From Nitrospirota bacterium (GTDB lineage: Bacteria; Nitrospirota; Thermodesulfovibrionia; Thermodesulfovibrionales; Dissulfurispiraceae), in NCBI GenBank assembly GCA_037446295.1, contig JBBIIV010000002.1:1-37836 (forward strand): a stretch of DNA of 37,836 nucleotides. The letters run 5' to 3'. Position 1 is the stretch's first letter; every line of letters starts with the position of its first letter. A model generated the notes under the pieces. The model was not told where the DNA came from and made no database searches. It saw nothing but the letters and a program-made list of their open reading frames with translations. Positions 1 to 18,962 of the stretch are shown here, one piece after another. The translations under genes were made by a program, and so were the position numbers.

Positions 1-267
1 CTGTTCGGCCGTTTCATAAATCCGGTCATTCTTTCATAGAACTTTTGACACTATCGTTTATAAAATTTAATATATATTGCGCCTCAGAATCTAGAGGCAA
101 AAACTATTCCATAGACATGAAAGGTGCTATTGCTTGTAATTTAAATACTTGGGTCTACCCTGACTGTCCACATCAGGACAAATGGATTAAAAATGGTGTT
201 CCAAATGGGACAACTGAAAAGACAGGTGACAGGCTATAGGCGATAGGCAAAAGGTTAAGGCAAAATG

Positions 268-1641
268 TTACTCAGGCAGAAGCCCATGATGCTTCATCTT
301 TGTCCTTAACTGTTTTCTCGATATTCCAAGTATTTCAGCAGCCTTTGTCTGATTCCATTGTGTTTTTGTTAAGGCGTTTAAGAGAAGCCTTTTTTCTGTT
401 TCAAAAAGAGAGCCTTCGATTGCTGTTAAGCTTTTTTCAGATGTTAATTCCCTTATTGAACTTGGCAAATATTTAACCGTGATGTAATCGAGCGGACATA
501 ATATAACAACTCTCTCTATAACATTTGCAAGCTCTCTGATATTACCAGGCCAGTCATATTCCATAAATGCACGCATTACCTCACTATCAAGAGACAAGAT
601 AGCTTTTTTATTTGCCTCATTAAATCTATTAAGGAAGAATTTGGCAAGAAGCGGGATATCCTCTTTTCTATCTCGTAAAGGAGGAATATTAATTGTGACT
701 ACATTCAATCTATAAAAGAGGTCTTCTCTAAAATTTCCACTTTTAACTTCTTTGTCAAGTTTTTTATTGGTAGCAGCTATTATCCTCAGATCAACCTTTA
801 TCCTATCTTTGCCACCAATCCTTAGAAACTCCCTTTCCTGTATAAACCTCAGAAGCTTTTTCTGTGTACTTAGCGAAAGTTCACCTATTTCATCCAGAAA
901 TAAAGTTCCGTTGTTTGCAATTTCAACCAGCCCTATCCTGCGCTCATAAGCGCTAGTAAATGAACCTTTTTCGTAACCAAAAAGTTCGCTTTCCAATAGC
1001 TGTTCTGGTAATGCAGCGCAGTCAATAGGAATAAAAGGCTTATTTGCCCTTGGTGATCCAAGGTATATGGCACGTGCTATCAATTCCTTGCCAGTTCCGC
1101 TTTCTCCCATTATCAGCACATTGGCACCGCTTTTTGAAATTGTTTCTACCAGGCTAAGTATATTCTGCATAACATGACTCTTGCCTATTATATTTTTGAA
1201 ACTATATCGTTCTTTTAGTTGCGTTTTAAGTGATATGTTTTCGAGACATAGCCTGCGTTTTTCGATGGCTTCTGTAACAACTGCGAGCAGTTCATCAGTA
1301 TTAATTGGCTTGGTGAGATAGTTAAAAGCTCCATGTTTCATTGCATCCACTGCCTTTTCAATAGTTCCATAGGCTGTAAGCATCACTACTGGAGCCTTAT
1401 ATTCTTTTTCTTTTAAGGCATCGAGGAATTCTATGCCGTTGATACCGGGAAGTTTAAAATCTGTAATGATTAAGTCGAAATCGTGCTTTACTGCCTTATC
1501 CAATCCTTCTTCGGCAGTTCTGGCAGTGCATATATCATAGTTATTATTCTGCTTCAAAACGGCTGACAATACCTTAAGCGAGCTTATTTCATCATCTACA
1601 AGGAGTATTTTGCTTTTGGTATTATTCACCTGTTTCATCAA
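268..1641 (-). CDS. sigma-54-dependent response regulator (REC + AAA+ enhancer-binding domain + Fis-type HTH)
   Basis: Receiver motifs (KILLVDDE, DLIITDFKLPGING). Walker A GESGTGKE. ESELFGYEKG followed by a variant sigma-54 contact loop GSFTSA. C-terminal HTH (WNQTKAAEILGISRKQLRTKMK). The start overlaps the stop of the upstream kinase gene by 4 nt. Confidence 0.9.
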   Translation of the reverse strand: MMKQVNNTKSKILLVDDEISSLKVLSAVLKQNNNYDICTARTAEEGLDKAVKHDFDLIITDFKLPGINGIEFLDALKEKEYKAPVVMLTAYGTIEKAVDAMKHGAFNYLTKPINTDELLAVVTEAIEKRRLCLENISLKTQLKERYSFKNIIGKSHVMQNILSLVETISKSGANVLIMGESGTGKELIARAIYLGSPRANKPFIPIDCAALPEQLLESELFGYEKGSFTSAYERRIGLVEIANNGTLFLDEIGELSLSTQKKLLRFIQEREFLRIGGKDRIKVDLRIIAATNKKLDKEVKSGNFREDLFYRLNVVTINIPPLRDRKEDIPLLAKFFLNRFNEANKKAILSLDSEVMRAFMEYDWPGNIRELANVIERVVILCPLDYITVKYLPSSIRELTSEKSLTAIEGSLFETEKRLLLNALTKTQWNQTKAAEILGISRKQLRTKMKHHGLLPE

Positions 1642-3284
1642 TTTAACTTGTCGTTATTTTTTATTATCGGTAGAATAATTTTGAATTCAGTACCTTTGCC
1701 AGGATTGCTATGTACTGTAATGTTTCCATTATGTGCCCTTATAATTCTTTCGACACATGCGAGTCCAAGTCCGCTGCCTCTGGTCTTTGTAGTAAAGAAA
1801 GGCTTAAATATATCTGAGATTATCTCCTCACTCATGCCTATACCTGTATCCTTAACTTCAATAATTGCATCTGAATTTTTAACTTTTGTACTTATTTTTA
1901 TTGTATCTCCTTGCTTTGTAGCATCAAGGGAATTAACAATAAGATTGAGTATAACCTGTTTTAACTGCATACCATCAAAACTGAATTTAGGCAATTCATT
2001 ACTAAGAGACACTGTAACTTCAATATTATTTTCTGTCGCATCTTGTCTCACAAGTTCTACTGTATCGCGAACAATTTTATTTAAATCATTTATCTCAAAC
2101 TCAATAGGAGGAGGTTTAGAAAATTTAAGGAAACTTGTAACAATATTGTTTAATCTTTGCGACTCTATCTCTATGATATATAAAAACTCCTTTAAAACTG
2201 CCCCTTTAAAATTATTTTGAAGGTAAGATACAGCTCCCAGTATTGCATTCAGAGGGTTTTTAATCTCATGAGCAACTGTCATTGACATCTCTCCTAAAGC
2301 GGATAGTTTTTCAAGTTGAGCCTTTTCTATATTCGTTTCCTCAATCTTTTTAATGCTCTCATTAAGTCTTTTGATCATCTGATTAAAAACCTCTATTAAT
2401 TCGCCTATCTCATCTCCACAAGATTCTTTATAAACTACACACTTCTTGCAATCATGTATCTTTATATACACATCATTCTGAATCTCCCCCTTGCACTTTG
2501 TTGCGGATATGTTCCAGCACTTTTTTTTGCCGTAAGCTGGGCAGGTTTTTTCGTCACAGCCAAGCATATCCCAGCAATTGACAATATAATCATTTGGCAC
2601 CTCTACATCGAGATTTCCAGTTTGAACGAGTTCCATTTTATCTTTTAATTTTTTCATTGGTGTGGTGAGCAAGCGTGCTAGCCCAAAAGAGCCCCATACT
2701 CCGATCAGTATAACAAAAGAAGATATCAATAGAAGTTGATTCTTGAGTCCTTTTAAATTATCTTTGATAACCATATCAATGTTTACCTTTGAAAATCCAG
2801 CGATTGCAAAACCTAAAACCTCATACCCTACATTTATAGCAATTATAGCCTCTTTTATATCAGGATTCGATGTGTCAACCAACTTTGTCTCGCCAGCATT
2901 TGCGATAAGTTGAAAATGATCTTTTTTATTATCATAAAGCATCATACCAAGTAATCTTCTGTCCGTATGTGCAACAACTATCCCTTTACTATCAAGTATA
3001 GCTGCATATATACAACCAGGTGATTGAACGGTTAACCTTACTATTTCGTCAAGTCTAAGAGGGTCTTTAATTATCAAAGGCTCTACAGCATCCTTTGCTA
3101 AACTACTCGTTAATACAAGATGGGTTTTGCTCAATTCTTTACTCAATAAATTCTTTTGACTAGTAACTATAAAGATATTCACAATGAGCATGATCAGAAA
3201 GATCAGAAGGATAACGGCTGCTGAAAACTTTTGTGCAAGGCTCAATTTTCTCAATATAGATTTAATGCCTCTGAACATAATCAA
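1638..3284 (-). CDS. sensor histidine kinase (2 TM + periplasmic domain, HAMP interrupted by a Cys-rich insert, HisKA, HATPase_c)
   Basis: TM segments near residues 21-41 and 184-204. HAMP halves PMKKLKDKMELVQTGNLDVEVP and GDEIGELIEVFNQMIKRL are separated by about 53 aa containing 8 Cys. H-box MTVAHEIKNPLN. N/G boxes (LNLIVNSLDA, DTGIGM, GSGLGL). Confidence 0.85.
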   Translation of the reverse strand: MIMFRGIKSILRKLSLAQKFSAAVILLIFLIMLIVNIFIVTSQKNLLSKELSKTHLVLTSSLAKDAVEPLIIKDPLRLDEIVRLTVQSPGCIYAAILDSKGIVVAHTDRRLLGMMLYDNKKDHFQLIANAGETKLVDTSNPDIKEAIIAINVGYEVLGFAIAGFSKVNIDMVIKDNLKGLKNQLLLISSFVILIGVWGSFGLARLLTTPMKKLKDKMELVQTGNLDVEVPNDYIVNCWDMLGCDEKTCPAYGKKKCWNISATKCKGEIQNDVYIKIHDCKKCVVYKESCGDEIGELIEVFNQMIKRLNESIKKIEETNIEKAQLEKLSALGEMSMTVAHEIKNPLNAILGAVSYLQNNFKGAVLKEFLYIIEIESQRLNNIVTSFLKFSKPPPIEFEINDLNKIVRDTVELVRQDATENNIEVTVSLSNELPKFSFDGMQLKQVILNLIVNSLDATKQGDTIKISTKVKNSDAIIEVKDTGIGMSEEIISDIFKPFFTTKTRGSGLGLACVERIIRAHNGNITVHSNPGKGTEFKIILPIIKNNDKLN

Positions 3285-4987
3285 TACCCTTTGAGAACTT
3301 CGAGTTCAGCCTCATTCACCTGCTTAAACTCTTTTATCTTTGCTGCTCCTAATATTTTATCTTCCCTAAGGTGTATCAATAGGCTCATCACTTTGCTCCC
3401 AAGAGATGGATTCCTATCACTACATTGAGCCACTGGCCAATTGGGAAGTGGATGAGTCCTTGCTAATATCTTTATCTGTTTCATATCTATTGCGTCTCTC
3501 CATACAACTAGAGCTGCTTCTCTTATAAAGCCCGCGTCAGCTTCTCCTCTATAAATACCGATTATTACATTTTCCTGCTTTTTCGCGTCTATAATTTTCA
3601 TATCCTTCTCTGTATCTATACCATTTTCCATCAGGGTTATCCGTTGTGAAAGATAGCCACCTGCAGATTTGGGCGAAGTTATAAGAACTTTTTTATTCCT
3701 TAAATCCTTGATATTCCTTATTGGACTATCATCCCTCGTTATGATAACTCCTCTAAATTTATCGCCTTGTTCAGCATGTTCGTCAGTAAGAGTATCCTCG
3801 CCGACAGTTGTAACAAGGGGTTTTATATCCGTTTCCTTATCTATTAAAGCAAAAATATAAGGATTTTGATAAGAAAAATCAGCCTTTCTGTTTTTTACTA
3901 TTTGCATAAAGTCTTCAAAATCTTTTGGGATCAAAAGTTTAAATTCATAGCCTGTTTTTGTGGTAAGATATCTCATTAAAGGGTCATATCTGTTATATAG
4001 TGTAATAGGCGAGTATAAAGGTAAAATCGCAAATTTGATCGTTTTAGGAGAGTATTCTACATAATCTTTGCCTGTAAGGTTTTTAATCATAAATCTAATA
4101 CCATCAAAATCTCTGTCAAGAGCTGCGACAAAACCAGAGAGATCGCTATCGATAGATGAAAGTATGGCTGTGTCTTTTAACGATACGAGGGCTTTAATTA
4201 TATCATTCTTTACCTCATTAGGTAGTATAGCGCTTGCGCATAGGACGAATGAAGGTATAGCTTCTGATTTTTTGATTATTTTTAATCCATAATTGAGATA
4301 TTTTTTTGCGACTGATTCGCTAATTGCCCCAACATGATGGTAGCCAATAAGCACAGATAGGGCAACTCTATCTTCCCGATAAAGAAAATCGACGCCAGAG
4401 AAGTCTTTTGTTTTGATGCCAACCTCGTTAAGCATTGCTAAGGGTATAAGGTAACTGAAGGACGACTGTCTGTTGCCAATCGCAAGATTTTTGCCTTTTA
4501 GGTCAGTTATCCTTTGAATGTCGCTGCTATTTTTTACGATCAGGACGCTGCGAGAGGTTGCTCCATCCACCCCTATAGGGCTAACGAGGGGGATAATATT
4601 GTTTTTATACTTAGCTCTTGCCTCGCAATATACAGCAGGATCAAGAAAAGCAAGGTGAGAACGCCCTTCTCCTATTTCTTTGACAGCGGTCTCGTAGTCT
4701 TTAGCAATCTTTATAATAATCTGCCTTTTTAGAATGCCCTCAAGATAATACTTGAGCAGTGCAAACTTCTCATACATCAGACCTGGGCTTTCTACAGGAA
4801 GAACAGAGAGGATTATGGGGGTTCCGACAAAATGCGAAGGTTTATATTGAGGTTTATTTTTAGCTTCATCAAGAGTTTTATCTTGTCCTAAACAAGCAAA
4901 GAGAACAAATAAAATAGGCAAAATCCAGAGCCAGCGCAATAGACTAAAATTTTTAATCAATGGCAACATTAAAGATAGCAGTTTCAC
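3281..4987 (-). CDS. lipoprotein with two tandem PhnD-like (phosphonate/phosphite-type) periplasmic solute-binding domains
   Basis: Signal peptide with lipobox LFAC. Two repeats of the PhnD-like pattern: ILSVLPVESPGLMYEKFALLKYYLEG...HLAFLDPAVY, and FAILPLYSPITLYNRYDPLMRYLTTKTG...ADFSYQNPYIF. No ABC permease or ATPase gene is adjacent. It overlaps the kinase gene start by 4 nt. Confidence 0.7.
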   Translation of the reverse strand: MKLLSLMLPLIKNFSLLRWLWILPILFVLFACLGQDKTLDEAKNKPQYKPSHFVGTPIILSVLPVESPGLMYEKFALLKYYLEGILKRQIIIKIAKDYETAVKEIGEGRSHLAFLDPAVYCEARAKYKNNIIPLVSPIGVDGATSRSVLIVKNSSDIQRITDLKGKNLAIGNRQSSFSYLIPLAMLNEVGIKTKDFSGVDFLYREDRVALSVLIGYHHVGAISESVAKKYLNYGLKIIKKSEAIPSFVLCASAILPNEVKNDIIKALVSLKDTAILSSIDSDLSGFVAALDRDFDGIRFMIKNLTGKDYVEYSPKTIKFAILPLYSPITLYNRYDPLMRYLTTKTGYEFKLLIPKDFEDFMQIVKNRKADFSYQNPYIFALIDKETDIKPLVTTVGEDTLTDEHAEQGDKFRGVIITRDDSPIRNIKDLRNKKVLITSPKSAGGYLSQRITLMENGIDTEKDMKIIDAKKQENVIIGIYRGEADAGFIREAALVVWRDAIDMKQIKILARTHPLPNWPVAQCSDRNPSLGSKVMSLLIHLREDKILGAAKIKEFKQVNEAELEVLKGY

Positions 4988-4993
4988 AAAAAA

Positions 4994-6142
4994 TCACTTT
5001 CCAAAGGGGCAGATAGGATACTTGCAATCATTACAGTTAAGACATAATCCACCATGTCCATACTCAGCCAGTTCTTTTCTGCCAATAATCTCTCCCGCAA
5101 GTATCCTAGGAAGAATGATGTCAAATATAGTTGTCTTATGATACATCCCGCAAGCTGGAATGCCTAAAATAGGGATAAGTGAGCTATCTGGAGTCTTATA
5201 GCAATTTTCAGTTTTATACATATTTGCTGTTCCATTTACAGTATAAGCTACTAAAAACATAGCTCCAGGCAAAACAGGAGAACCATATGTAACCTCTCTG
5301 CCAGTTATTCTTTTGATAGCAAACCTGCTTACATCATCAGGATCAACAGACATGCCACCTGTAACAATCAGTAGGTCAGCCCCTGCGCTAAGAAGATCCA
5401 AAAGTCTTTTTTCGATATAATCTGTGTTATCAGGGGCATAAAACAGATCTATTATTTCTCCTTTAAATTTACTCAGTTTGTCTTTAATAACCTCTGCGAA
5501 TGAATCTTTAACTCTACCATAAAATACCTCATTTCCAGTAATCACAACACCTGCTTTAAACTTTTTAAGTTCTCTTACCTCTATCACACCTCTGCCGTTG
5601 CAAAGGTGATTCACCGTTTTCCGAGCTTTCTTTAACAAATCCTTTTTTATAACGAGCGGTATGGCTCTGGCACCAGCTATAATCTGACTTTTTTTAACCA
5701 GTGTGTGATTATGTAAGGTTGCGCACATAATCTCACCTAATAAATTAAACTCCAAAAGGGCTTCAGTATTTATCTTCAAAATGCCATCTCTTGCTGCAAC
5801 AAAATTTATCTTACCTTCCTTAGGATTACCTTGAACTGCTACGCCATCCCCTTTAATTATATTACCAATTTCTATAGCAGCGTCGTCTTCATGCATTTCA
5901 TCATCTGAAATACTTAAAACAAAAAGGTTCTCTTTGCCAAGTCTCCTTAAATGGCTAATATCAGATTCGGTTATTATATGTCCTTTCCTGAAGGCGACCC
6001 CTTTAAACTCGTCTTTTTTTATCTCGGTAAGATCATGCGCCAAAATACATCCTACTGCCTGAGAAATAGAAATTGTCTTAAGCCTTCTATTATCAGTTGG
6101 AGCTGGATTTGTTGAATGCTCACACATTAAAAATCCTTTCAA
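4994..6142 (-). CDS. molybdopterin-binding (MoeA/MoCF-biosynthesis-like) protein with C-terminal Cys cluster
   Basis: MoaB/MogA/MoeA-type motif LLIVTGGMSVDPDD. MoeA-like N-terminal region (ISISQAVGCILAHDL). C-terminal CLNCNDCKYPICPFGK. An alternative start MCEHS lies at 6127. Only 6 nt separate it from the downstream gene. Confidence 0.6.
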   Translation of the reverse strand: MKGFLMCEHSTNPAPTDNRRLKTISISQAVGCILAHDLTEIKKDEFKGVAFRKGHIITESDISHLRRLGKENLFVLSISDDEMHEDDAAIEIGNIIKGDGVAVQGNPKEGKINFVAARDGILKINTEALLEFNLLGEIMCATLHNHTLVKKSQIIAGARAIPLVIKKDLLKKARKTVNHLCNGRGVIEVRELKKFKAGVVITGNEVFYGRVKDSFAEVIKDKLSKFKGEIIDLFYAPDNTDYIEKRLLDLLSAGADLLIVTGGMSVDPDDVSRFAIKRITGREVTYGSPVLPGAMFLVAYTVNGTANMYKTENCYKTPDSSLIPILGIPACGMYHKTTIFDIILPRILAGEIIGRKELAEYGHGGLCLNCNDCKYPICPFGK

Positions 6143-7097
6143 ATTTTTTATTAACTAACTCGTTGATGCCATTTTCGAGGTTTTCATATTTCCTAAGAAA
6201 CTCTCTGGCTTCTTTTGTAAGGACCGTCCCACCTCCATCCTTGCCCCCGGCATACCTTTCTACCAGTTTGATGCCAAGCCTTGACTCCATAGCATTAATA
6301 TAGCTCCATGCCTTTTTATATGATATTTGGATTTCTTTAGCAGCCTGATTAATAGATCCATACCTATCTATAGCTTTGAGAAGCAGTTTTCTCCCTCTGC
6401 CAAAAATAGGCTCGCCTTCGATTTCTATCCAGAGCTTTGACCTGACAACAAGTTCGTTATGACCTTTTTGCATAACGACAGTCGAAAAAAAATCTTTTTC
6501 TTTTGACGCTGAAGCATAGTAAGCTCCTTCTACGCAAGGCTTGCAAAATATTGCCTCCGAAGTGATTATTTCCCTTAAATCCTGAATAAACTCGCCACAA
6601 ATACTACATCTAACATGGCTTAAGGGTTTGCCGGGCAAGTCTTCTGGTTTAATCAAAATCTTTACATTCATGACATCAAAGAGTTCCTCGTCTGGCATTA
6701 TTTTATATGCTTCTATTTGAGCCTTGTATTTATCAGTTATTTCTGGAAAATAATCCTTTGCCTTTTGTTTTGCATCCTCTTTGGCAACAATCCTAACAGC
6801 TTTATTGTCGTTTACATTAAGAAAAGCTGCTGCAACCTTGCCATAATCAAAAAATTTCAGTGTTCTATGTCCAAGACTGCAGCCTGTAACTGACTGAATG
6901 GCGTCTGTAAGACATCTGTCGGTCTCTACAAAGACAATCAAAGATTTCTTATTTTTGCCTTTGGGGTCTACAACATTAATCTTTTCAAGCCCTAAAATTG
7001 ACATCCTAACGCCGAGAACCTGTCCAGGGCAAAGGTGTCCGTGAGTGTTAACAGATTCATTCAGTAAATAATCAAATTTTTCAGTTATTGATGACAT
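6120..7097 (-). CDS. FmdE-domain protein fused to a zinc ribbon and a ModE-N-type winged HTH (putative Mo/W-linked transcription factor)
   Basis: FmdE signature HGHLCPGQVLGVRM. CxxC...CxxC ribbon (CSICGEF...CKPC). C-terminal GRGRKLLLKAIDRYGSINQAAKEIQISYKKAWSYINAMESRLGIKLVER matches the ModE N-terminal HTH. I moved the start to ATG 7097 (MSSITEKF), because the 26 extra codons of the longer ORF look non-coding. Confidence 0.7.
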   Translation of the reverse strand: MSSITEKFDYLLNESVNTHGHLCPGQVLGVRMSILGLEKINVVDPKGKNKKSLIVFVETDRCLTDAIQSVTGCSLGHRTLKFFDYGKVAAAFLNVNDNKAVRIVAKEDAKQKAKDYFPEITDKYKAQIEAYKIMPDEELFDVMNVKILIKPEDLPGKPLSHVRCSICGEFIQDLREIITSEAIFCKPCVEGAYYASASKEKDFFSTVVMQKGHNELVVRSKLWIEIEGEPIFGRGRKLLLKAIDRYGSINQAAKEIQISYKKAWSYINAMESRLGIKLVERYAGGKDGGGTVLTKEAREFLRKYENLENGINELVNKKFERIFNV

Positions 7098-7108
7098 AAT
7101 ACAAATAC

Positions 7109-7136
7109 AATATAACATTAGAAAAATATAATTCAA
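7109..7136 (-). promoter_or_regulatory. candidate sigma-70 promoter (TTGAAT-N16-TATATT) for the fmdE-modE operon
   Basis: Read on the minus strand, TTGAAT (7136-7131), a 16 nt spacer, then TATATT (7114-7109). The -10 element ends only 11 nt before the ATG at 7097 and no Shine-Dalgarno is visible, which suggests a leaderless or near-leaderless mRNA. Confidence 0.3.
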
Positions 7137-7181
7137 GTCTTGAAAATCCCCAAAATCCAAATACACAAAGAACAAAGAAAA

Positions 7182-7328
7182 GGGACGGGAGGCTGTCTCA
7201 TAATCACAAAAAATGTGTATTTTGTTATTTTGAGCGAAGCGAAGAATCTATTAAAATTCAATATGTTACAAATTTGAAATTCTTAAGCTGGGACCTCGGA
7301 ATGACATTTGGTGACAGCCTGCCGTCCC
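7182..7328. repeat. MITE/REP-like intergenic element bounded by 16-bp inverted repeats
   Basis: GGGACGGGAGGCTGTC (7182-7197) pairs with GACAGCCTGCCGTCCC (7313-7328), 15 of 16 complementary. The interior carries GAGCGAAGCGAAGAATC and, on the minus strand, GTCATTCCGAGG. This is the GTCATTCC-type motif that recurs at 33400-33553 and 14285-14313. Confidence 0.55.
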
Positions 7329-7489
7329 GGTTATTAGTCTTCAGGGAAAGCCGTCTGCGGCACCCTGCAAAGCTCATAAAAGCCTATCATCCAATGTTTT
7401 TTTACCATTCTAGGGTCAAATAAAAAGTCTTTATAAGTTATAATATCAGGAAATGTTTTAACCTTTATTGCTCGGGCGTTTAAGAATTT

Positions 7490-10400
7490 ATGACGAAAAA
7501 AATAATTGTAGTATCACTTTTATCTATAATACTTCTATCCGCCTTTTTCTTCCTGCGTAGTTCTTATATATCGGATACCCTCAAGAGCCTTATATTGCCG
7601 GAGATAGAGAAAACCATAAATAAAAAGGTGACCATTGACAAGATATATATCAATTTTTTCCCTCTTTTTCTCGGCGTAAATGATTTAAAGATATATGAAA
7701 ATGTTGATGATAAAGAGATTCTCCACGCTAAAAGGATAAAAGGATATATAGGTTTCTTTGAGCTTTTCGGCAAAAGAATCGCTATAAAGAGGCTGTCTAT
7801 AAAGGAGCCTGTTATTGACTTGGAGAAGAAGAAGCTCGAAGAAATCATCGCCTCCTTTGATGAACAAAAGACCGAAGAAAAAGATAAACCTGTGGTTGTA
7901 ACAATTAAATCTGTACAGATAGACAACGGAAGCATCTCTCTCAGGGATGATAACCGTTTATTATCCCTTTATGGTATGAATACAGATATTTTGGTTTCTG
8001 GCACGCCGGAAGTCAGGGTTTCCGTTGAAAAGGCGCATTTTTCAAAAGATAAGGACTTAAATCTCGACGGAAGGGTTGCATTACGTTTTATTTATAAAAA
8101 CAATAACATAGACTTGAAATCCTTAAAGGTTACTGTAACTAATTCTGAGTTGAACGCAACAGGGACTTTCGATGTCGGCAAGTCATCCGGCGAATTGAAA
8201 ACCGAGGTTAACCTGCTTATCGATTCCTTAAAGAATGCATTCGGGCTCATCAATAAAGGAGACGGTTTTTTATCTGCCAAAGGTAATATCAAAGCGGTCG
8301 ACCTAAAAGCAGGATTCAAGGATATCTTTCTTGATCTAAAGGTAAAGGGAGATCTTTATCTCGAAACATTGATGGAATTGTTGAGGGTGAAGGAACCGCT
8401 CTATGGCAGAATAAGTTTCAACGGTGATGTAAAAGGACAACTGAAAGACATTCATGGCAGCGCAGACGCAGAACTCAAGAATGGAAGCCTATTCAGGGTT
8501 GACATTGACAAGCTGAACTGCAAGGTTGAATATGCGGGAGGCAAGATGAAATTCACAAAAGGGATTGCCTCTCTTTATGATGGAAGCGCAATGGCTGAAG
8601 CAGTTATAAACCTGCCGGTGGTTAATCATTTCACATTTAAGGTCACAGCTAAAGATGTTTCCAGCAAGAGGATTTTTGAGTTGATAAAATGGGATCCTGG
8701 GTTGCCAGACGGCAAAATCAATGGCGATATATTATCTTCGGGCGGCGTATTCAACCCATATGTGAATTTTATTTACATAAACAAGACTGAAGGCAAGGAT
8801 GTCATTGGAAAGATAAGAGAGATTAAGGGTAATTTAAACATGAAGGACAACTTCATTAGCTTCCCGGATATGACGCTCTCAACACCTAAATCAGACCTCC
8901 GTACAACGGGTTCGGTAGATTTGAAGAATAATAAAATAAGTTTTACAGGAAGCGGCAGGACTTCCGACCTAAAGGAGCTTACAAGTCCATATTTTTCGGC
9001 AGTTTCCGGTTCATGCAGGTTTAATATTTCGCTCTCTGGAAAATTAAGCAATCCTGTTATCGACTTGAACCTTGCATCGGATGCTATGACATTTACAACT
9101 GCAAATCTTGCGATGCCGGATATCTTTAATAACAAGGTCTTTGACTTTAATTCCATAAAATCCACTTTAACTTACGATAAAAATCATCTCTTGCTAAAAG
9201 AGTTCCGCGCACGGAGAAATAATGAGAAATTCACAGCAAAGGGAAACATCTATTTCAAAAAAGCGGCAAAGCTGTTTGAGGTGAGAGAGCCCGATTATAA
9301 TCTAAATATAACCACAGATAACGCCGATATCGAAAATATAACTGGAACAGTCAAAGGACTCCCCAAACTCAAGGGCGCATTGAGCGCCGAATTCGGGATG
9401 AAAGGCGCTGCAGATTCTCTGAGATTTTCCGGCGAATTTAATTCAAAGGGATTTGCTTATATGGATAATTATGTTGCAGACGCATTGCGCGGAAAATTTT
9501 CTTATGCAACAAGGGAATTTCTTATCAGCACCGCAACTATGAAGAAAGGTGATTCCGTTTTGAATCTGAACGGCAGGTTATCATTAGATAAAAGGTTCAC
9601 CCTCAATGCAGAAGGAAAAAAAATAATGATAAGCGATATCCTTTCAGAATCTTTATCAGGAAAATATAAGACGGATACCATAAAGGAACTCTATTTGGAT
9701 AATCTGACAATCAAGGGTGAAGGGCATTTTAATAATCCTAATCTTGAGATGAAAGGCAGCATTTCAGGAAAAAAGAATAGGGTAGGGTGGCTCAGCAAAG
9801 GAAATATTAATGCAAGAATCTCCGGGAAACAAGCGGACATTGATTTATCCTTAATGGACGGAAGGCTGAAGATAACCGGGAAGGCGGGGCTTGGCGAGAA
9901 ACTGCCATGGTCTGCAACTGCTGATATAAAACCGGCGAATTACGCCCCACTCGTTTCAGGTTTTTTAAAGGATGCCCCTGATGACCTACTTATAAACCTG
10001 ACAGGCAAGATAACAGCCAATGGTGATAAGGATAATATAAACGCTGATATCTCTCTGAGCAGGGCGTATGTCTTTTTATACGGGATAGGCCTTGCAAACA
10101 GTTCTGATATACTCGTGAATGTCAAAAACAAAAGTATCGCCATAGGAAGTTTCTCGATGCAAGGGGATGATGCGGAATTCAGCATAAGCGGTAGTGTGGT
10201 CACTGGGAATAAATATGATTTGCTCCTTGAAGGGACTTCATCTGTGGCTCCTCTGAAGGTTCTTTCCAAGGAAATCGAGACCTTGAAAGGCAAGGCTTAC
10301 TTTGTCATATCCTTGTCCGGTGGATGGGAAAAACCGGAAATAAACGGCGGGATAGATTTTACAAACGGGACATTTGCGCTTAAAAGCATTCCCAACAGGT

Positions 10401-11485
10401 TCTCTTCCATTTCAGCCTATCTTTATGTGGATGAAGACAGGATAATTATAAAAAATATAGATGGGAAATTTGCAGGGGGTGATTTTTCCGCATCCGGAAC
10501 TGCTTTCCTTCAAGGCATGAATTTAAAGAACTTTTTCTTAGAGGCTAAACTTAACGATTTAACCATGTCGCGGACGAAGGATCTCTGGGCAAATTTTGAC
10601 GGCATCCTGCATTACCGAGGTTCTTTGAAATCACAGGACTTAACCGGCGATATAAATATAAAAAGGGCGAAGTACTCGCAAAGGATTGAATGGAAAAGCT
10701 GGCTCCTTCAGATTCGCAAGAGAGAAACGGCTAAACTTGATGCATCAAGATTGGGTCAGACCGCTCTTAATGTGAGGGTAAAGGGAGAAAACCTTATAAT
10801 CGACAACAATATAGCCGAGACTACGGCGAAAATGGACATGATCGTTCGAGGGACGATAAACAGGCCGGTTTTACTCGGAAAATTGAATGCAGACAAGGGG
10901 ACTGTATATTTCAGAAATAACGAATTCAAGGTTTTGAAAGCGCGGGTGGATTTTATAGATCCCGAAAAGACGACCCCATACTTTGATATTGTTGCAGAAA
11001 CAAAGGTCAAAAACTATCTTATCAAACTCGGTCTTGACGGCAATTTTGAGCATTTTGACCTCTCCCTCACCTCCGATCCCTATCTGAATGAAAGCGATAC
11101 ATTCAGCCTTCTGACCGTCGGACAGATTGGCAAGCAGATGAAAGGGCTCGAAGGCGGCGTCGGCACAAGCGAGGCCACATCTTTTCTCGCAGGAAAGCTT
11201 CAGGATGTGCTTGAAGAAAGGGTCAAGACCATTACAGGAATAGACAGAATCCAGATTGACCCTCATGTGTCAAAATCAGCGGGCACCGTCACTCCAAGGA
11301 TTACCGTTTCTAAGAAGATTCTTGGGGATAAACTGCATGTAACCTATAGCGCTTCAACAGGTGAGGGTGAAGAGCAGATATGGAAACTTGAATACTTTTT
11401 CGATAAAAATATATCCTTTGTCGGGGTCAGAGATGAAAAGGGAGGGCTTGGAGGAGATGTCAAATTCAGATTTGAATTCAAATAA
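7490..11485 (+). CDS. tamB: translocation and assembly module protein TamB (AsmA-like, C-terminal DUF490-type domain)
   Basis: 1331 aa. Single N-terminal TM anchor (IIVVSLLSIILLSAFFF). Long repetitive beta-rich body. The C-terminal region (RITVSKKILGDKLHVTYSASTG...WKLEYFFDKNISFVGVRDEKGGLGGDVKFRFEF) is typical of the TamB C-terminus. It sits immediately upstream of an Omp85 gene. Confidence 0.8.
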   Translation: MTKKIIVVSLLSIILLSAFFFLRSSYISDTLKSLILPEIEKTINKKVTIDKIYINFFPLFLGVNDLKIYENVDDKEILHAKRIKGYIGFFELFGKRIAIKRLSIKEPVIDLEKKKLEEIIASFDEQKTEEKDKPVVVTIKSVQIDNGSISLRDDNRLLSLYGMNTDILVSGTPEVRVSVEKAHFSKDKDLNLDGRVALRFIYKNNNIDLKSLKVTVTNSELNATGTFDVGKSSGELKTEVNLLIDSLKNAFGLINKGDGFLSAKGNIKAVDLKAGFKDIFLDLKVKGDLYLETLMELLRVKEPLYGRISFNGDVKGQLKDIHGSADAELKNGSLFRVDIDKLNCKVEYAGGKMKFTKGIASLYDGSAMAEAVINLPVVNHFTFKVTAKDVSSKRIFELIKWDPGLPDGKINGDILSSGGVFNPYVNFIYINKTEGKDVIGKIREIKGNLNMKDNFISFPDMTLSTPKSDLRTTGSVDLKNNKISFTGSGRTSDLKELTSPYFSAVSGSCRFNISLSGKLSNPVIDLNLASDAMTFTTANLAMPDIFNNKVFDFNSIKSTLTYDKNHLLLKEFRARRNNEKFTAKGNIYFKKAAKLFEVREPDYNLNITTDNADIENITGTVKGLPKLKGALSAEFGMKGAADSLRFSGEFNSKGFAYMDNYVADALRGKFSYATREFLISTATMKKGDSVLNLNGRLSLDKRFTLNAEGKKIMISDILSESLSGKYKTDTIKELYLDNLTIKGEGHFNNPNLEMKGSISGKKNRVGWLSKGNINARISGKQADIDLSLMDGRLKITGKAGLGEKLPWSATADIKPANYAPLVSGFLKDAPDDLLINLTGKITANGDKDNINADISLSRAYVFLYGIGLANSSDILVNVKNKSIAIGSFSMQGDDAEFSISGSVVTGNKYDLLLEGTSSVAPLKVLSKEIETLKGKAYFVISLSGGWEKPEINGGIDFTNGTFALKSIPNRFSSISAYLYVDEDRIIIKNIDGKFAGGDFSASGTAFLQGMNLKNFFLEAKLNDLTMSRTKDLWANFDGILHYRGSLKSQDLTGDINIKRAKYSQRIEWKSWLLQIRKRETAKLDASRLGQTALNVRVKGENLIIDNNIAETTAKMDMIVRGTINRPVLLGKLNADKGTVYFRNNEFKVLKARVDFIDPEKTTPYFDIVAETKVKNYLIKLGLDGNFEHFDLSLTSDPYLNESDTFSLLTVGQIGKQMKGLEGGVGTSEATSFLAGKLQDVLEERVKTITGIDRIQIDPHVSKSAGTVTPRITVSKKILGDKLHVTYSASTGEGEEQIWKLEYFFDKNISFVGVRDEKGGLGGDVKFRFEFK

Positions 11486-15445: not shown

Positions 15446-16888
15446 ATGAAGAATTTTCTTCTGAGTTTGTCCATCAACACAAAACTCATAGCAATGATGC
15501 TCTTTATGAGCTTCATTTTAATATCCATCCTTTTGTTTTTTTACCAACGCTCTGAGCAAAAAATATTTAATGAAATAGAAAGGCAGACCGCCGAGCTTAC
15601 CAAAGCGATTCAGGTAGGCGTTGAGGAAGTGACCGCTTACGGCGCTACCGATGAAGCCCGACTGACCAATTATCTGAAAGAGTTAAATGCAAGGGGAATT
15701 CAGGAAATCTCCATTATAAGCAATGAAGACCAGATAATAGCGAGCACAAATACCGCAAGGATAGGCGAACCGATAACGCGCAAGAAAAAAGACTTAATAA
15801 TCAAGGCTGAACTCGGCGATCCTGTCTCTGACGAAGGCAAGACTTATAATGTCATTTTCCCTGTTGTTGTTGGAGGGACAGAGTATGCATATATTCATTA
15901 CGGCTATATACATCTGAAGATTAATAAAGATGACTTTTCTGATTTGCTTGAGACTTCAGCTATTGAAAAGATTGTGGTTACCCTGATGGTTTTTGGAATT
16001 GGCATTATTATGACAATATTTTTCTCAAGGCAATATACCCGTCCTATTCATGATGTGGTTAACGCAGCGATGAATGTGGCAGGTGGAGATTTGAATCAGA
16101 ACTTGCCTATAAGAAGCTCTGATGAGATTGGCAAGCTTTCAACCAGCTTTAATTATATGGTCAATAAATTAAGGGAAAGCAAGATGCTTGAAGAAAAGTT
16201 AAGGGAGGTTGAGCATCTCTCGGCTGTAGGACAGCTATCAAGAAGCATGGCTCATGAGATAAGAAATCCTCTTAATTTTATCAATCTTAGCATTGATTAT
16301 ATCGGAGACAAATATCTCCCAGACGACCCAAAAAATAAAGAGAAATTTAGCAGTCTCGTCAGAGGAATAAAGGAAGAAATTCAGAGGCTCAATAAACTTG
16401 TCAATGAATTTCTTGACTACAGCAAGCCTATTAAGTTAGATATCAGTAAAGTTCAAATCGGCAAGGCTATTAATGACCTTCTTTTGCTTGTTCAAGCAAA
16501 GGCTGAAGCCGAAAAGATTAAGATTATCAAAGAGACTACTGATGATTATGAAATTGGCATAGATCAGGAGCTTATTAAATCGTGTATATTGAATCTTATA
16601 ACAAACGCATTTCACGCAATGGAAAACATTGAACGAGAACATTTTTTAAAAATAAAAACTGCAGTGGATGGTTCGAATTTAATCTTAACCGTTTCAGATA
16701 ACGGCACGGGTGTCTCGCCCGAAAATCTTTCGAAGATATTTGACCCTTTCTTCTCAACAAAGAAAAATGGACTTGGACTCGGTTTGCCATTTACCAAGAG
16801 AGTGGTTGAGGAGCATGGCGGCAGGGTAGAATTTCAAAGCAAATTAAATGAAGGTAGTGAAGCCAGAATAATACTACCACTGGGTTAA
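15446..16888 (+). CDS. sensor histidine kinase (2 TM, periplasmic domain, HAMP, HisKA, HATPase_c)
   Basis: Canonical HAMP (RPIHDVVNAAMNVAGGDLNQNLPIRSSDEIGKLSTSFNYMVNKL). H-box RSMAHEIRNPLN. N box LNLITNAFHA. G boxes DNGTGV and GLGLGL. Confidence 0.85.
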   Translation: MKNFLLSLSINTKLIAMMLFMSFILISILLFFYQRSEQKIFNEIERQTAELTKAIQVGVEEVTAYGATDEARLTNYLKELNARGIQEISIISNEDQIIASTNTARIGEPITRKKKDLIIKAELGDPVSDEGKTYNVIFPVVVGGTEYAYIHYGYIHLKINKDDFSDLLETSAIEKIVVTLMVFGIGIIMTIFFSRQYTRPIHDVVNAAMNVAGGDLNQNLPIRSSDEIGKLSTSFNYMVNKLRESKMLEEKLREVEHLSAVGQLSRSMAHEIRNPLNFINLSIDYIGDKYLPDDPKNKEKFSSLVRGIKEEIQRLNKLVNEFLDYSKPIKLDISKVQIGKAINDLLLLVQAKAEAEKIKIIKETTDDYEIGIDQELIKSCILNLITNAFHAMENIEREHFLKIKTAVDGSNLILTVSDNGTGVSPENLSKIFDPFFSTKKNGLGLGLPFTKRVVEEHGGRVEFQSKLNEGSEARIILPLG

Positions 16889-16941: not shown

Positions 16942-18336
16942 ATGGCAGTTGTCGTTGTAATTGATGATGAGCTTCCTCAGCTTTCTATTATTAAAACAAT
17001 CTTGGAAGAAAACGGCTACGAAGTTTATGCAGCATCCTCAGGAGAAGAAGGTCTAAAATTAATCAAGACAATCAATCCTGATGTTGTTCTCTCAGACCTT
17101 AAAATGAGCGGCATGAGCGGCGATCAACTTCTTGACGCTTTGAATGAAGAGGCTGTTAAACCTGCGTTTGTTTTGATGACGGCATTTGGAACTATTTCAT
17201 CTGCTGTTGAGGCAATGAAAAAAGGCGCATTTCATTACCTTACCAAACCTATTGATAAGGATGTGATTTTGCATACGGTGAGAAAAGCAGCTGAGATGAT
17301 ATATCTAGGTAGAGAAAATATTAGACTTCAGGATGCACTTTTCGATAAATTTAAGATAGAGGGAATAGTCGGCGGCTCTAAAAAGATGAAAGACGCTGTC
17401 GATGTAGTAAAAAAGGTAACACCTACAACAGTAACAGTGTTGATTTATGGAGAGAGCGGAACGGGCAAGGAGCTTATTGCGAGGGCAATTCATTATAACA
17501 GCCCGAGGCGAACGGGTCCTTTTACCGTCATTAATTGCGCCGCAATTCCTGAAAATCTCATTGAAAGCGAGCTTTTTGGATATGAGCCTGGCGCTTTTAC
17601 AGGCGCTTCTCACCGCAAGATAGGTCTTTTTGAAGCTTCCGACAAAGGAACACTTTTCCTTGACGAGGTAGGCGACCTTCCTCTGCTGACACAGACAAAG
17701 ATATTGAGGGTTTTGCAAGATAAGGAGATAAGAAGACTTGGCGGGAAAAATAATATCAAGGTCGATGTCAGAATCATTGCGGCAACTAATAAAATGCTCG
17801 AAAAGGAGGTCTCAGCCGGAAGATTTAGAGAGGATCTTTTTTATAGGCTTAAGGTTGTAACAGTTGACCTCCCACCCCTTAGAGACAGAAAGGAAGATAT
17901 TCCTACCCTCGCAGATTTTTTTATAAAAAAATACAACAATGAGTTCGGCAAAAGAGTCAAGGGGATAAGTGATGGGTCAAAGAAGGCGCTGGTTGAGTAT
18001 TTATGGCCAGGGAATATTCGCCAGCTTGAATCGGTAATAGAGAGGGCTGTCCTCATGTGCGACAAGGACATGATTAATATAAACGACATCAAGAGTGAAC
18101 TCAAGCTTCCGGACCAAGCTGGCATACTAGAGATTGAAATACCCGACGAAGGGATAGACTTTGAAGAGCTTGAGAGGGAATTAATAAGAAAAGCTATGGT
18201 CAAAACAAATAATGTTGCTGCAAAAGCAGCTCAACTATTAGGCATGAGCTATAAAACATTCTGGTACAGACTCGAGAAATTTGGGCTAAAATCAGTTTCC
18301 TCAAAAGGGGATATATATCCCGAAAAGAGAAACTAA
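16942..18336 (+). CDS. sigma-54-dependent response regulator (REC + AAA+ + HTH)
   Basis: Receiver (VVVIDDE, DVVLSDLKMSGMSG). Walker A GESGTGKE. Canonical GAFTGA loop (GYEPGAFTGA). C-terminal HTH (NNVAAKAAQLLGMSYKTFWYRLEK). Confidence 0.9.
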   Translation: MAVVVVIDDELPQLSIIKTILEENGYEVYAASSGEEGLKLIKTINPDVVLSDLKMSGMSGDQLLDALNEEAVKPAFVLMTAFGTISSAVEAMKKGAFHYLTKPIDKDVILHTVRKAAEMIYLGRENIRLQDALFDKFKIEGIVGGSKKMKDAVDVVKKVTPTTVTVLIYGESGTGKELIARAIHYNSPRRTGPFTVINCAAIPENLIESELFGYEPGAFTGASHRKIGLFEASDKGTLFLDEVGDLPLLTQTKILRVLQDKEIRRLGGKNNIKVDVRIIAATNKMLEKEVSAGRFREDLFYRLKVVTVDLPPLRDRKEDIPTLADFFIKKYNNEFGKRVKGISDGSKKALVEYLWPGNIRQLESVIERAVLMCDKDMININDIKSELKLPDQAGILEIEIPDEGIDFEELERELIRKAMVKTNNVAAKAAQLLGMSYKTFWYRLEKFGLKSVSSKGDIYPEKRN

Positions 18337-18412: not shown

Positions 18413-18428
18413 TGGCATTATATTTGCA
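18413..18428 (+). promoter_or_regulatory. sigma-54 (-24/-12) promoter
   Basis: TGGCATT-ATAT-TTGCA matches the consensus TGGCACG-N4-TTGCW with exact GG-to-GC spacing. It lies about 60 nt upstream of the start codon of the small ORF at 18486 and directly downstream of a sigma-54 activator gene. Confidence 0.7.
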
Positions 18429-18485: not shown

Positions 18486-18962
18486 TTGATGAAGAGATTA
18501 GTGGCGTTAATAGTAGCAATTTTATTTGTTTTTGCCGTTTCCTCAGTAGCCATTGCTCAGGAGAAGCCTGGTGTAAAGCCGGCGGAGCCAGCGAAACCGG
18601 CAGCAAAACCTGCTGATGCGCCAAAGGCTGAACAGAAAAAGGCTGAAAAGGCAAAGGTAAAACAAGTTACAGGTGAAGTTGCAGCAGTCGATGCAGCAGC
18701 AAATTCCATTACTGTAAAGGGAAAGAAAGCGGAAGTCAAAATGACCGCCGATGCCAAGCTTATTGCTGATGTTAAGGTTGGAGACAAGGTTACCGCAAAG
18801 TACACAGTTCAGGATGGAAAGAATGTAGCGAAGAGCGTAAAGAAGGCAGTCGCAAAGGCTGACAAACCGAAAGCTGATGCGAAACCAAAGGCTGATGCAA
18901 AGCCGGCAGAAAAACCAAAAGCTGATGTAAAACCATCAGCAGAGCCAGCAAAAAAGCCTTAG
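18486..18962 (+). CDS. small secreted Lys/Ala/Pro-rich protein of unknown function
   Basis: Strong RBS AAGGAGGTG (18472-18480). TTG at 18486 and ATG at 18489 are both possible starts. Signal peptide MKRLVALIVAILFVFAVSSVAIA-QE. A central beta-rich core of about 55 aa (VTGEVAAVDAAANSITVKGKK...VKVGDKVTAKYTV) is flanked by low-complexity PAKPA and KPKADAKP repeats. Confidence 0.7.
   Translation: MMKRLVALIVAILFVFAVSSVAIAQEKPGVKPAEPAKPAAKPADAPKAEQKKAEKAKVKQVTGEVAAVDAAANSITVKGKKAEVKMTADAKLIADVKVGDKVTAKYTVQDGKNVAKSVKKAVAKADKPKADAKPKADAKPAEKPKADVKPSAEPAKKP
18856..18933 (+). repeat. imperfect tandem coding repeats (K-A-D-A-K-P units)
   Basis: AAAGCTGATGCGAAACCA, AAGGCTGATGCAAAGCCG and AAAGCTGATGTAAAACCA are reiterated at the 3' end of the small ORF. 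Confidence 0.6.

Follow-up and report, generated by a model that had tools for sequence, protein, structure and literature searches.

The DNA analysed here, called the window, is a stretch of 37,836 nt from an uncultured, Thermodesulfovibrio-like bacterium (contig JBBIIV010000002.1, positions 1-37,836 of the forward strand; positions below are those of the window). The gene located at 1638-3284, on the minus strand, encodes a sensor kinase of the sCache-TM-HAMP-HisKA-HATPase type (TM, transmembrane segment), whose HAMP domain is divided by a module of 53 residues with eight cysteines. The feature is real and conserved, and it is practically certain that the module is a domain, homologous to the family catalogued as two-CW, nested in the HAMP of the kinase. 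The best reading, held with somewhat more belief than doubt, is that of an autonomous, probably metal-binding domain, inserted at the junction between the HAMP connector and the second HAMP helix (AS2), where the DExG motif is located, and acting as a second, cytoplasmic input. Two parts of this reading are graded on their own: that the module binds a metal cofactor is likely, and that it acts as a sensor, not as a fixed structural part, is slightly favoured.

The kinase is composed of TM1, sCache_3_2, TM2, HAMP with the nested two-CW module, HisKA and HATPase_c, distributed as follows:

1638-3284, minus strand: sensor histidine kinase gene, an open reading frame (ORF) of 548 aa from TTG, with Pfam domains.
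2760-3146, minus strand: sCache_3_2 sensor domain, periplasmic (residues 47-175; Pfam PF17203, E 2.9e-8, 34.3 bits).
2592-2681, minus strand: first half of HAMP, with the first helix (AS1) and the start of the connector (residues 202-231, including Pro208 and Gly224; Pfam HAMP).
2577-2591, minus strand: remaining connector, DYIVN (residues 232-236), running into the insert (sequence and alignment).
2418-2576, minus strand: two-CW-like module, 53 residues (237-289; translation and NF045718 match).
2574-2576, 2556-2558, 2541-2543, 2517-2519, 2493-2495, 2448-2450, 2439-2441 and 2418-2420, minus strand: codons of the eight module cysteines, 237, 243, 248, 256, 264, 279, 282 and 289 (translation).
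2358-2417, minus strand: second half of HAMP, with DExG (D291-E292-I293-G294) and the AS2 helix (residues 290-309; Pfam HAMP).
2115-2297, minus strand: HisKA dimerisation/phospho-acceptor domain (residues 330-390; Pfam PF00512, E 2.3e-13).
1665-1976, minus strand: HATPase_c catalytic domain (residues 437-540; Pfam PF02518, E 6.1e-28).

The interruption of HAMP is visible in the Pfam scan. The whole kinase matches PF00672 with 35.6 bits (E 1.2e-8, cut-off 25), in two stretches: residues 202-231 correspond to profile positions 2-31 (E 4.7e-4, when residues 189-236 are scanned alone), and residues 290-309 to positions 34-53 of 53 (E 1.7e-5, 25.5 bits, when residues 290-315 are scanned alone). The domain does not form a single, unbroken unit of ~50 residues, as the 53-residue module splits one part from the other. 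The other two kinases of the window, for which the original prediction had announced uninterrupted HAMPs, are indeed matched in one stretch each: residues 193-244 cover positions 2-53 in the kinase at 15446-16888(+), and residues 273-321 cover positions 4-52 in the kinase at 20390-22426(-).

Alignment of the three window kinases defines the insertion point. All of them open AS1 with Thr-x-Pro and share the motif G-[DN]-L-[ND]-x-x-[VIL]; Pro208 and D291-E292-I293-G294 of the studied kinase align with equivalent motifs in the two ordinary HAMPs. In the latter, the shared motif is followed by five residues and then by DEIG; in the studied kinase it is followed by PNDYIVN, the 53 residues, a Gly and DEIG. 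The ordinary connector (G224-N236) is thus retained; the module comes in addition to it, where connector and AS2 meet, and a single residue separates it from DExG. The original prediction had placed about 53 residues between AS1 and AS2: the insert is real, but a short connector is still present before it. The stretch itself, with eight cysteines and two CW dipeptides (C237-W238 and C256-W257), proved exact in position, on the minus strand, which had not been specified. The identification of AS1 and AS2 also holds, and so does the position of the module inside HAMP, not behind a complete one: the split Pfam match, the alignment with ordinary HAMPs and the superposition of the predicted model all agree.

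In the parts of Airola et al. (2013, PMC3570549) drawn upon here, membrane-associated HAMPs are distinguished by two marks, a proline preceding AS1 and a DExG motif where the connector meets AS2; a divergent HAMP regained transmembrane signalling once DExG was added; the Glu of DExG makes a bond to AS1's N terminus in Af1503, and the two signalling conformers differ in connector packing.

The AlphaFold2 model of residues 196-325 (74 rows, mean pLDDT 75.3) has one long helix over its positions 2-26 and another over 97-129. When compared with 48,161 solved chains, it finds its best match in Af1503 (4cq4_A and 4gn0_A: Z 8.5, root-mean-square deviation (rmsd) 1.8 Å, 68 residues over model positions 1-124, with the insert skipped), followed by VicK (4i5s_B, Z 8.4), the Aer2 poly-HAMP (3lnr_A, Z 7.4) and 3zrv_A (Z 7.1). 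The nuclear magnetic resonance structure of Af1503 (2l7h) aligns over 57 residues of its 58-residue chain, while 4cti, 3zx6, CpxA (4biu) and NarQ (5iji) are also among the matches; HAMP-containing chains occupy ten of the 15 top rows. The two helices of the monomer model superpose on the HAMPs of Af1503, Aer2, CpxA and NarQ with Z of 5.8-8.5, below the level that is safe for helical folds, and these predicted matches are taken as support, not proof, of a nested HAMP. Foldseek, with the HAMP-plus-insert model, returned nothing at E<=0.001. No second AS2-like helix is seen before residue 237, in the model of 196-325 or in the alignment with ordinary HAMPs. With the canonical membrane HAMP (PF00672; Af1503, Tsr, EnvZ, CpxA, NarQ) the kinase shares a predicted arrangement of helices, differing from it for the 53-residue module after the connector.

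Cysteines are concentrated in the module: of the ten present in the kinase, only two are found in the remaining 495 residues. The window background is 0.75% Cys (85 of the 11,326 residues of 28 proteins), for which the binomial probability of at least eight in 53 residues is 6.6e-9; none of the other proteins of the window has as many as eight within a stretch of that length. Profile searches by hidden Markov model (HMM), which had been suggested as a check, gave no Pfam family within the insert and a match to the NCBIfam model NF045718, "two_CW_domain": E 1.1e-7 and 32.1 bits for the 53 residues, E 1.8e-7 and 31.4 bits for residues 231-295, E 7.5e-6 and 27.5 bits in a six-frame scan of the genome. 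The name "two-CW", which the original prediction had offered with reserve, is right in kind, although the cut-off for its use is missed. With the insert alone as the query, a search of 1.84 billion cluster representatives retrieves 190 proteins at E<=0.001, six of them at E<=1e-10; all of the 16 short relatives scanned match NF045718, 13 at 35 bits or more and three lower (25.9, 29.3 and 33.4). Because the match to the model is significant, the cut-off is missed and the retrieved relatives are members, the insert can be described, on its sequence, as a compact, sub-threshold homologue of NF045718, in a protein that the NCBI rule would not name so.

The likeness extends to the two CW dipeptides and the seven conserved cysteines, to the CP that follows the third of these, to G-T-x-C, and to the Q and K positions. 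In 82 diverse rows, C248, C256, W257, C279 and C282 are invariant, and C237, W238, C243, P249, T262, C264 and K275 are found in at least 90%; the seven family-wide cysteines are all present, in order, in the insert, a pattern that holds in 82 rows and in 150 rows. The insert differs from the model for being compact (51 residues cover 80 model positions), for its short Cys2-Cys3 and Cys3-Cys4 loops, and for an eighth cysteine (C289), invariant in the kinase clade; in addition, the best-scoring members of the family are not inserts, being small stand-alone proteins of ~100-170 residues. A model of the module alone (82 rows, mean pLDDT 81.4) predicts a short helix after the first cysteine and a hairpin about the fifth; the sixth, seventh and eighth fall in two further predicted helices.

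Conservation of the cysteines among orthologues, on which the original prediction had made itself depend, is evident. A word-indexed homologue search with residues 200-312 produced 160 candidates, 135 of them with E<=0.001, and the full-length ones show the same architecture; most homologues among the matches listed are ~540 residues long, with the same Pfam domains. Those bearing a name belong to Nitrospirota, Thermodesulfovibrionales and Dissulfurispiraceae, with a single one from Chloroflexota; the named public relatives are metagenome-assembled genomes of Thermodesulfovibrionales and Nitrospirota. Both CW motifs, according to the first pattern used, are present in 99 of the 122 homologues examined, whereas 23 retain the cysteines and replace the W after the first one; among these, the fifth cysteine is missing in one and displaced in another. 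In 74 aligned rows, C237, C243, C248, C256, W257, C279, C282 and C289 are invariant, as are D291, E295, F300 and N301, while C264 is found in at least 90%: seven of the eight cysteines are invariant, and the remaining one is nearly so. No candidate was found among shorter proteins holding residues 225-300. The scan of genome contigs with a profile built on one alignment (A1) confirmed none of 608 stretches, and that with the whole kinase protein gave 10 loci.

The survey of homologues for presence or absence of the insert, also suggested beforehand, shows that orthologues keep insert and cysteines, and that a paralog lacks the insert. The latter (L017) forms a paralogous pair with a tandem binding protein, in a sister genome (G114) which is without the studied kinase. 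The two kinases align over 509 columns, on both sides of the insert, with 27% identity (E 5e-49): the 120 residues of the query between 194 and 313 correspond to 67 in L017, 53 fewer, and the connector of L017 leads directly to D-E-T-V-Q-L.

The module is also present in proteins of many other types. A systematic sample, consisting of every sixth of the 150 best representatives (25 proteins), was analysed with Pfam. In five of them a HAMP half directly abuts the module (kinases P0129 and P0255; chemoreceptors P0147, P0177 and P0219), and the abutting halves always stop at profile positions ~27-31 before the module, or start at 33-34 after it. In six (P0135, P0159, P0195, P0207, P0213, P0231) the module lies ~40 residues before HisKA, with no adjoining Pfam HAMP, and the short kinase P0123 falls in the same class. 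In about seven it is found at or near the N terminus, as in P0171, with a sigma-54 activator core, in the STAS protein P0225 and in the kinase P0267; in one, P0141, it is inside a CheW domain, which Pfam matches in two stretches. A complete Pfam HAMP is located well upstream of the module in P0135 and P0261. When every second of the 150 representatives is considered (75 relatives), the tally is HisKA 34, HATPase_c 32, HAMP 18, REC 14, PAS about 13, MCPsignal 10, GGDEF 7 and CheW 2.

In the alignment of the 150 relatives, the majority consensus after the last CxxC is D-x6-E-x-F-N-x-M, and the columns of F300, N301 and M303 contain F in 103 cases, N in 82 and M in 82. An AS2 motif in register, designed for this analysis, is found in 64 of the 119 internal domains, against one of the 30 that start within the first 30 residues. 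From contexts and register together it follows that the module is a mobile signalling part, found most often at the junction that precedes a helix of the AS2 type. Seven soluble kinases of ~340 residues (P0105, P0108, P0111, P0115, P0117, P0119, P0123) consist of an AS1-like helix, two-CW, AS2 and a kinase core: here the module is the only candidate input. HMMs made from the AS1 and AS2 of the orthologues were too narrow, scoring at E<=0.01 in 14 of 133 and 22 of 147 cases, respectively, against 0 and 2 of 788 control stretches; strict regular expressions for AS1 and AS2 jointly matched just 15 of the 150 relatives. The conclusions on the flanks rest on Pfam analysis of the systematic sample and on alignment columns, not on these tools. 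A tree built from 51 columns of 148 two-CW domains shows 34 changes of context label, where shuffles give 65.5 (standard deviation 3.4), so that contexts cluster on it; a single origin of the contexts is not claimed, since related proteins have labels in common and a tree from 51 columns is weak.

The position inside HAMP is not special to this kinase: kinases and chemoreceptors from many lineages have it too. The doubt, expressed in the original prediction, as to whether it had been described, is answered only in part: no study dealing with the two-CW domain, or with a cysteine module placed in the connector of a HAMP, was found in a literature coverage that mostly leaves out subscription journals. 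As far as found, the two-CW family is catalogued by name yet unstudied, and the intra-HAMP arrangement is widespread and undescribed in print. As further observations on context, CheW-like relatives, in which the module is inserted into the CheW domain, are P0141, P0148, P0156 and P0169, while the chemoreceptors P0133 and P0144 carry two tandem copies of it at their C-terminal end.

Within the genome carrying the window (1.8 Mb, 82% complete) two more members are found: a 146-residue protein (L001:181-621(-), contig C98), with a weak HTH_3 match followed by a two-CW domain scoring 51.6 bits, above the cut-off, and a protein (L002:1-1674(-), contig C30) with an N-terminal two-CW lacking the fifth cysteine, then PAS, GAF and GGDEF. 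In the phylum, NF045718 is matched at E<=1e-5 in 82 of the 201 genomes sampled (78 above the cut-off), in none of six families for which 7 to 28 genomes were sampled, and in none of 14 well-known control genomes. The top matches (100-115 bits) are ORFs of ~100-170 residues, often in adjacent pairs, up to 13 per genome. Stand-alone two-CW genes abound in family f17 (for example at G103:C79:7905-8526, G091:C14:1119-1741 and G173:C3:685931-686582).

The kinase itself, as judged by matches to residues 196-325 at E<=1e-10, is encoded in 59 of the 201 genomes, and in 46 of the 147 of good quality. Its spread across families is patchy: all genomes are positive in family f5 (10 out of 10), 8 out of 13 in f1, 23 out of 44 in f17, and none in f21 and f22 (0 out of 28 in each). 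In f5, no genome out of ten reaches E 1e-5 with NF045718, yet all ten carry the kinase-type insert: the curated model therefore misses the compact form.

From these data a mechanism may be inferred. The module would fold autonomously around a cysteine-held cofactor, either an iron-sulfur (Fe-S) cluster or zinc; its ends would lie close together, allowing the HAMP four-helix bundle to form, and the module would hang from the side of the bundle. Its state (with the cofactor loaded and reduced, as opposed to lost and oxidised) should bias HAMP towards its kinase-on or kinase-off conformers, because the occupied junction couples the input to AS2; at the DExG junction the module is well placed to bias the HAMP switch. 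Two signals would be combined in the kinase, a periplasmic one for a ligand, coming from the binding protein and the Cache domain, and a cytoplasmic one for metal or redox state; the combined signal would be passed on to the sigma-54 activator. The named relatives come from anaerobic lineages, which would fit an oxygen-labile cluster. An extended version can be proposed, tentatively and as a rather doubtful one, in which an oxygen- or redox-labile cofactor, most likely Fe-S, held by the seven cysteines, would sit on the DExG junction and gate HAMP, deciding if the transmembrane signal goes through, so that output requires both the ligand outside and reducing conditions inside; the cassette would have moved as a single unit among kinases and chemoreceptors, and, as a bolder addition, some stand-alone members would contain selenocysteine in place of a conserved Cys, which would make those positions chemically active and not just structural.

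A number of points weigh against a sensory, metal-binding domain nested in HAMP. All three NF045718 scores of the insert remain below the naming cut-off of 35. Only in five of the 25 sampled relatives is a Pfam HAMP half found beside the module. Pfam calls no HAMP in L017 at E<=0.001, so that the comparison documents a kinase lacking the module and not a textbook HAMP. The Z values of the HAMP matches lie below ~13, where helical arrangements can match by chance, and the confidence of both predicted models is middling. For the module by itself, no structural neighbour is found (no rows at E<=10 with Foldseek against the PDB; none of the 48,161 chains at Z>=2 with VIA-align), and its fold therefore gives no functional hint. 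As for its cysteines, C289 is not a family-wide ligand, being Cys in just 13 of 148 relatives; a classical Fe-S motif, such as CxxCxxC, is absent from the module, and eight cysteines would suit two Cys4 zinc sites equally well. Finally, an always-folded, constant module would be conserved too, so that conservation cannot separate a sensor from a scaffold.

The lack of neighbours would be weak evidence of a novel fold, coming from a 65-residue, metal-less model; in the search of PDB sequences with phmmer the best E is 0.64. A profile search with a second alignment (A2) was dominated by kinase cores, and uninformative on the module, while in the ESM Atlas the nearest clusters are hypothetical proteins, at 0.88-0.89, and a search restricted to named entries gave no usable match.

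Among the rival readings, the one given most weight is a fixed structural zinc domain, permanently folded on the side of HAMP, stiffening the connector-AS2 junction or docking a partner, without sensing. The eight cysteines can be arranged into two Cys4 sites, with C279-x2-C282 as a knuckle-like pair where a predicted helix begins; the single register kept with AS2, across kinases and chemoreceptors, is what is expected of a built-in part, and the relatives inserted into CheW (P0141; 2 of 75), as well as many of the small stand-alone proteins, may be read as interaction modules. Such a domain is nevertheless considered unlikely: the module occupies a sensor position, at the N terminus, in GGDEF, STAS and sigma-54 activator proteins, nothing else could provide the input of the ~340-residue soluble kinases, paralogous kinases work without it, and the patchy distribution of the family (82 of 201 genomes, none in six families) would be unusual for a structural part, although this last is weak evidence. 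A sensor is slightly favoured over a scaffold on the first two grounds, the sensor-type placement elsewhere and the role as only candidate input.

A metal-free thiol-disulfide switch, where oxidation would cross-link the module and alter the geometry of the junction, is quite improbable. The high cysteine density agrees with it, but seven invariant cysteines at fixed spacing, with a Pro after the third, would rather resemble sets of ligands, and Pfam found no thioredoxin-like CxxC context in the kinase. Redox-active positions would also be indicated by the in-frame TGA found at or next to conserved cysteine columns in four two-CW ORFs, if it were read as selenocysteine. These small stand-alone ORFs, from other genomes or metagenomes (L047:112-435(-); L048:307-777(+); L049:383-697(+), the same as L065 and as L068 from a metagenome; L067:301-338(+) and flanks), contain one TGA each, after which the conserved domain continues in frame: the codon falls in the Cys2 column (in two different genes), at Cys4 (U-W for C-W), or two residues before Cys4. 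A selB gene is found in two genomes (G000, 371 bits; G158, 299 bits). Against selenocysteine, Rfam found nothing on the TGA-bearing ORFs, the nearest orthologue of one of the ORFs has Cys at the TGA position, each TGA context is present in one of 64 genomes, and hairpins following the codon are equalled in 23 Cys-coding paralogs (mean -27.9 kcal/mol, versus -22.0 and -32.8); moreover, TGT and TGC are one change away from TGA.

The possibility that the helices are mis-assigned, with a complete HAMP ending before the cysteines and the cysteine region forming a separate domain, has a parallel in P0135 and P0261, where a complete HAMP is found well upstream; it is very improbable here, as only the beginning of the profile (2-31) precedes the insert and only the end (34-53) follows it, no second AS2-like helix comes before residue 237, and the two helices of the model superpose on whole HAMP domains. 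That the cysteine run arose by chance or as low-complexity, functionless sequence can be practically discarded, given the binomial probability of 6.6e-9, the cysteines invariant in 74 rows and the homologues found throughout the 1.84 billion-protein library.

The preferred reading, a nested domain acting as a second input, may be compared with known systems. Aer is the aerotaxis receptor of E. coli, in which FAD-PAS signals sideways to HAMP. The likeness would be an analogy only: in Aer a cytoplasmic cofactor module feeds a redox signal directly into HAMP, bypassing the membrane. The PAS of Aer is a separate N-terminal domain, contacting HAMP sideways, while the kinase module is nested in the HAMP chain and features no PAS fold. 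Other cysteine-based systems are the zinc-binding chemoreceptor domain CZB, the Fe-S kinase NreB, the WhiB-like and FNR-type Fe-S regulators, and the zinc-thiolate switches RsrA and Hsp33. By analogy with them, the module may be expected to hold zinc or Fe-S through its cysteines, with an output altered by loss or oxidation; it differs from all of them in that Pfam finds nothing in the insert, and in its lack of structural neighbours. To our knowledge, none of them has been described inside HAMP.

HAMP is among the commonest signal converters of bacterial receptors, and its switching mechanism is still debated: a HAMP into whose connector-AS2 junction nature has built a folded domain, probably one bearing a cofactor, would be a ready-made probe of the switch. 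If the module senses redox state, oxygen, nitric oxide or metal supply, one receptor would merge outside and inside signals at the converter itself, and hundreds of two-CW proteins of anaerobes, known by name only, would gain a function. The window taken alone adds one more member to the family, in a compact, sub-threshold form, unnamed by the NCBI model.

Some details of the kinase complete its description. The copy in a public protein collection is 546 aa long and begins at an ATG two codons inside. Hydrophobic segments at residues 20-42 and 183-205, identified by a Kyte-Doolittle scan and by inspection, flank sCache_3_2. His339 (codon 2268-2270), in the motif HEIKNP, is the presumed phospho-acceptor, by comparison with the family. 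The kinase core (residues about 305-545) is closest to the AtoS/ZraS type, and the partner is likewise a sigma-54 activator of the NtrC type; the sensor and HAMP parts differ. The equivalog cut-offs are both missed, and only the core is matched: 235.7 bits versus 646 for NF008468, and 219.3 versus 479 for NF007688. The LIC_12097 kinase family (NF047497) was considered as a home for the architecture and rejected, as the kinase scores 103.3 bits, versus a cut-off of 500, and none of three short soluble two-CW kinases matches it at E<=1e-25; full-text literature searching found no paper on that family.

The genes surrounding the kinase are the following:

3281-4987, minus strand: periplasmic binding protein of the tandem PhnD type, 568 aa (Pfam Phosphonate-bd in two stretches, E 1e-97).
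268-1641, minus strand: NtrC-type response regulator, with REC, sigma-54 activator AAA+ and Fis-type helix-turn-helix (HTH) domains (Pfam).
4994-6142, minus strand: MoCF_biosynth protein, directly upstream of the operon (Pfam).
6120-7175, minus strand: fusion of an FmdE domain with an HTH of the LysR/ModE type, also directly upstream of the operon (Pfam).

The kinase gene overlaps by four bases the binding-protein gene, upstream, and likewise the regulator gene, downstream. The three genes are adjacent in all of the 12 related loci with long flanks, and in ten of 11 short loci, the eleventh being interrupted by a contig end: the kinase belongs to a conserved three-gene unit, with the binding protein and the sigma-54 activator. 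A link to the molybdenum-cofactor-type genes (4994-7175) was rejected, as these adjoin the trio in just one of the 12 related loci. In five of the 12, the regulator is followed by a TauE/SafE-type permease of ~400 residues (L025:10652-11875(+), L030:11030-12229(+), plus three other loci); in two of the five, a gene for a universal stress protein stands in between, and the permease is a candidate target of the system. The contig of the window ends 267 bases beyond the regulator gene, and the sole TauE-like match of the genome (57% identity) is inside another contig. Sister genomes without the kinase keep only a fragment of the binding-protein gene (L016, G013:C1:2129101-2129718; L023, G114:C64:15198-15539): one fragment has 62% identity over residues 21-225, in a frame of 244 codons, the other 61% identity over residues 60-173, with an internal TGA. 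This looks like operon decay.

Promoter and terminator scans of positions 1-7600 gave results not above those of shuffled sequences, and sigma-54-like matches in the whole window (26, versus 24.3 in shuffles) are not above chance. Two single matches are reported as such. TGGCATTATATTTGC, at 18413-18427(+), has one mismatch to the sigma-54 promoter consensus and is located 77 bases past an NtrC-type regulator gene (16942-18336) and 59 bases before an ORF with no Pfam match (18486-18962). TGGAATAGTTTTTGC, at 97-111(-), contains the GG and GC of sigma-54 promoters at the correct spacing and has two mismatches; its place is near the contig end, downstream of the trio's regulator gene, with its target gene beyond the window. 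Elsewhere in the window, the listed start of a BamA-like ORF (GTG, 11361) overlaps by 125 bases (11361-11485) the end of a TamB-like ORF (7490-11485), and the true start of the former is probably located further in.

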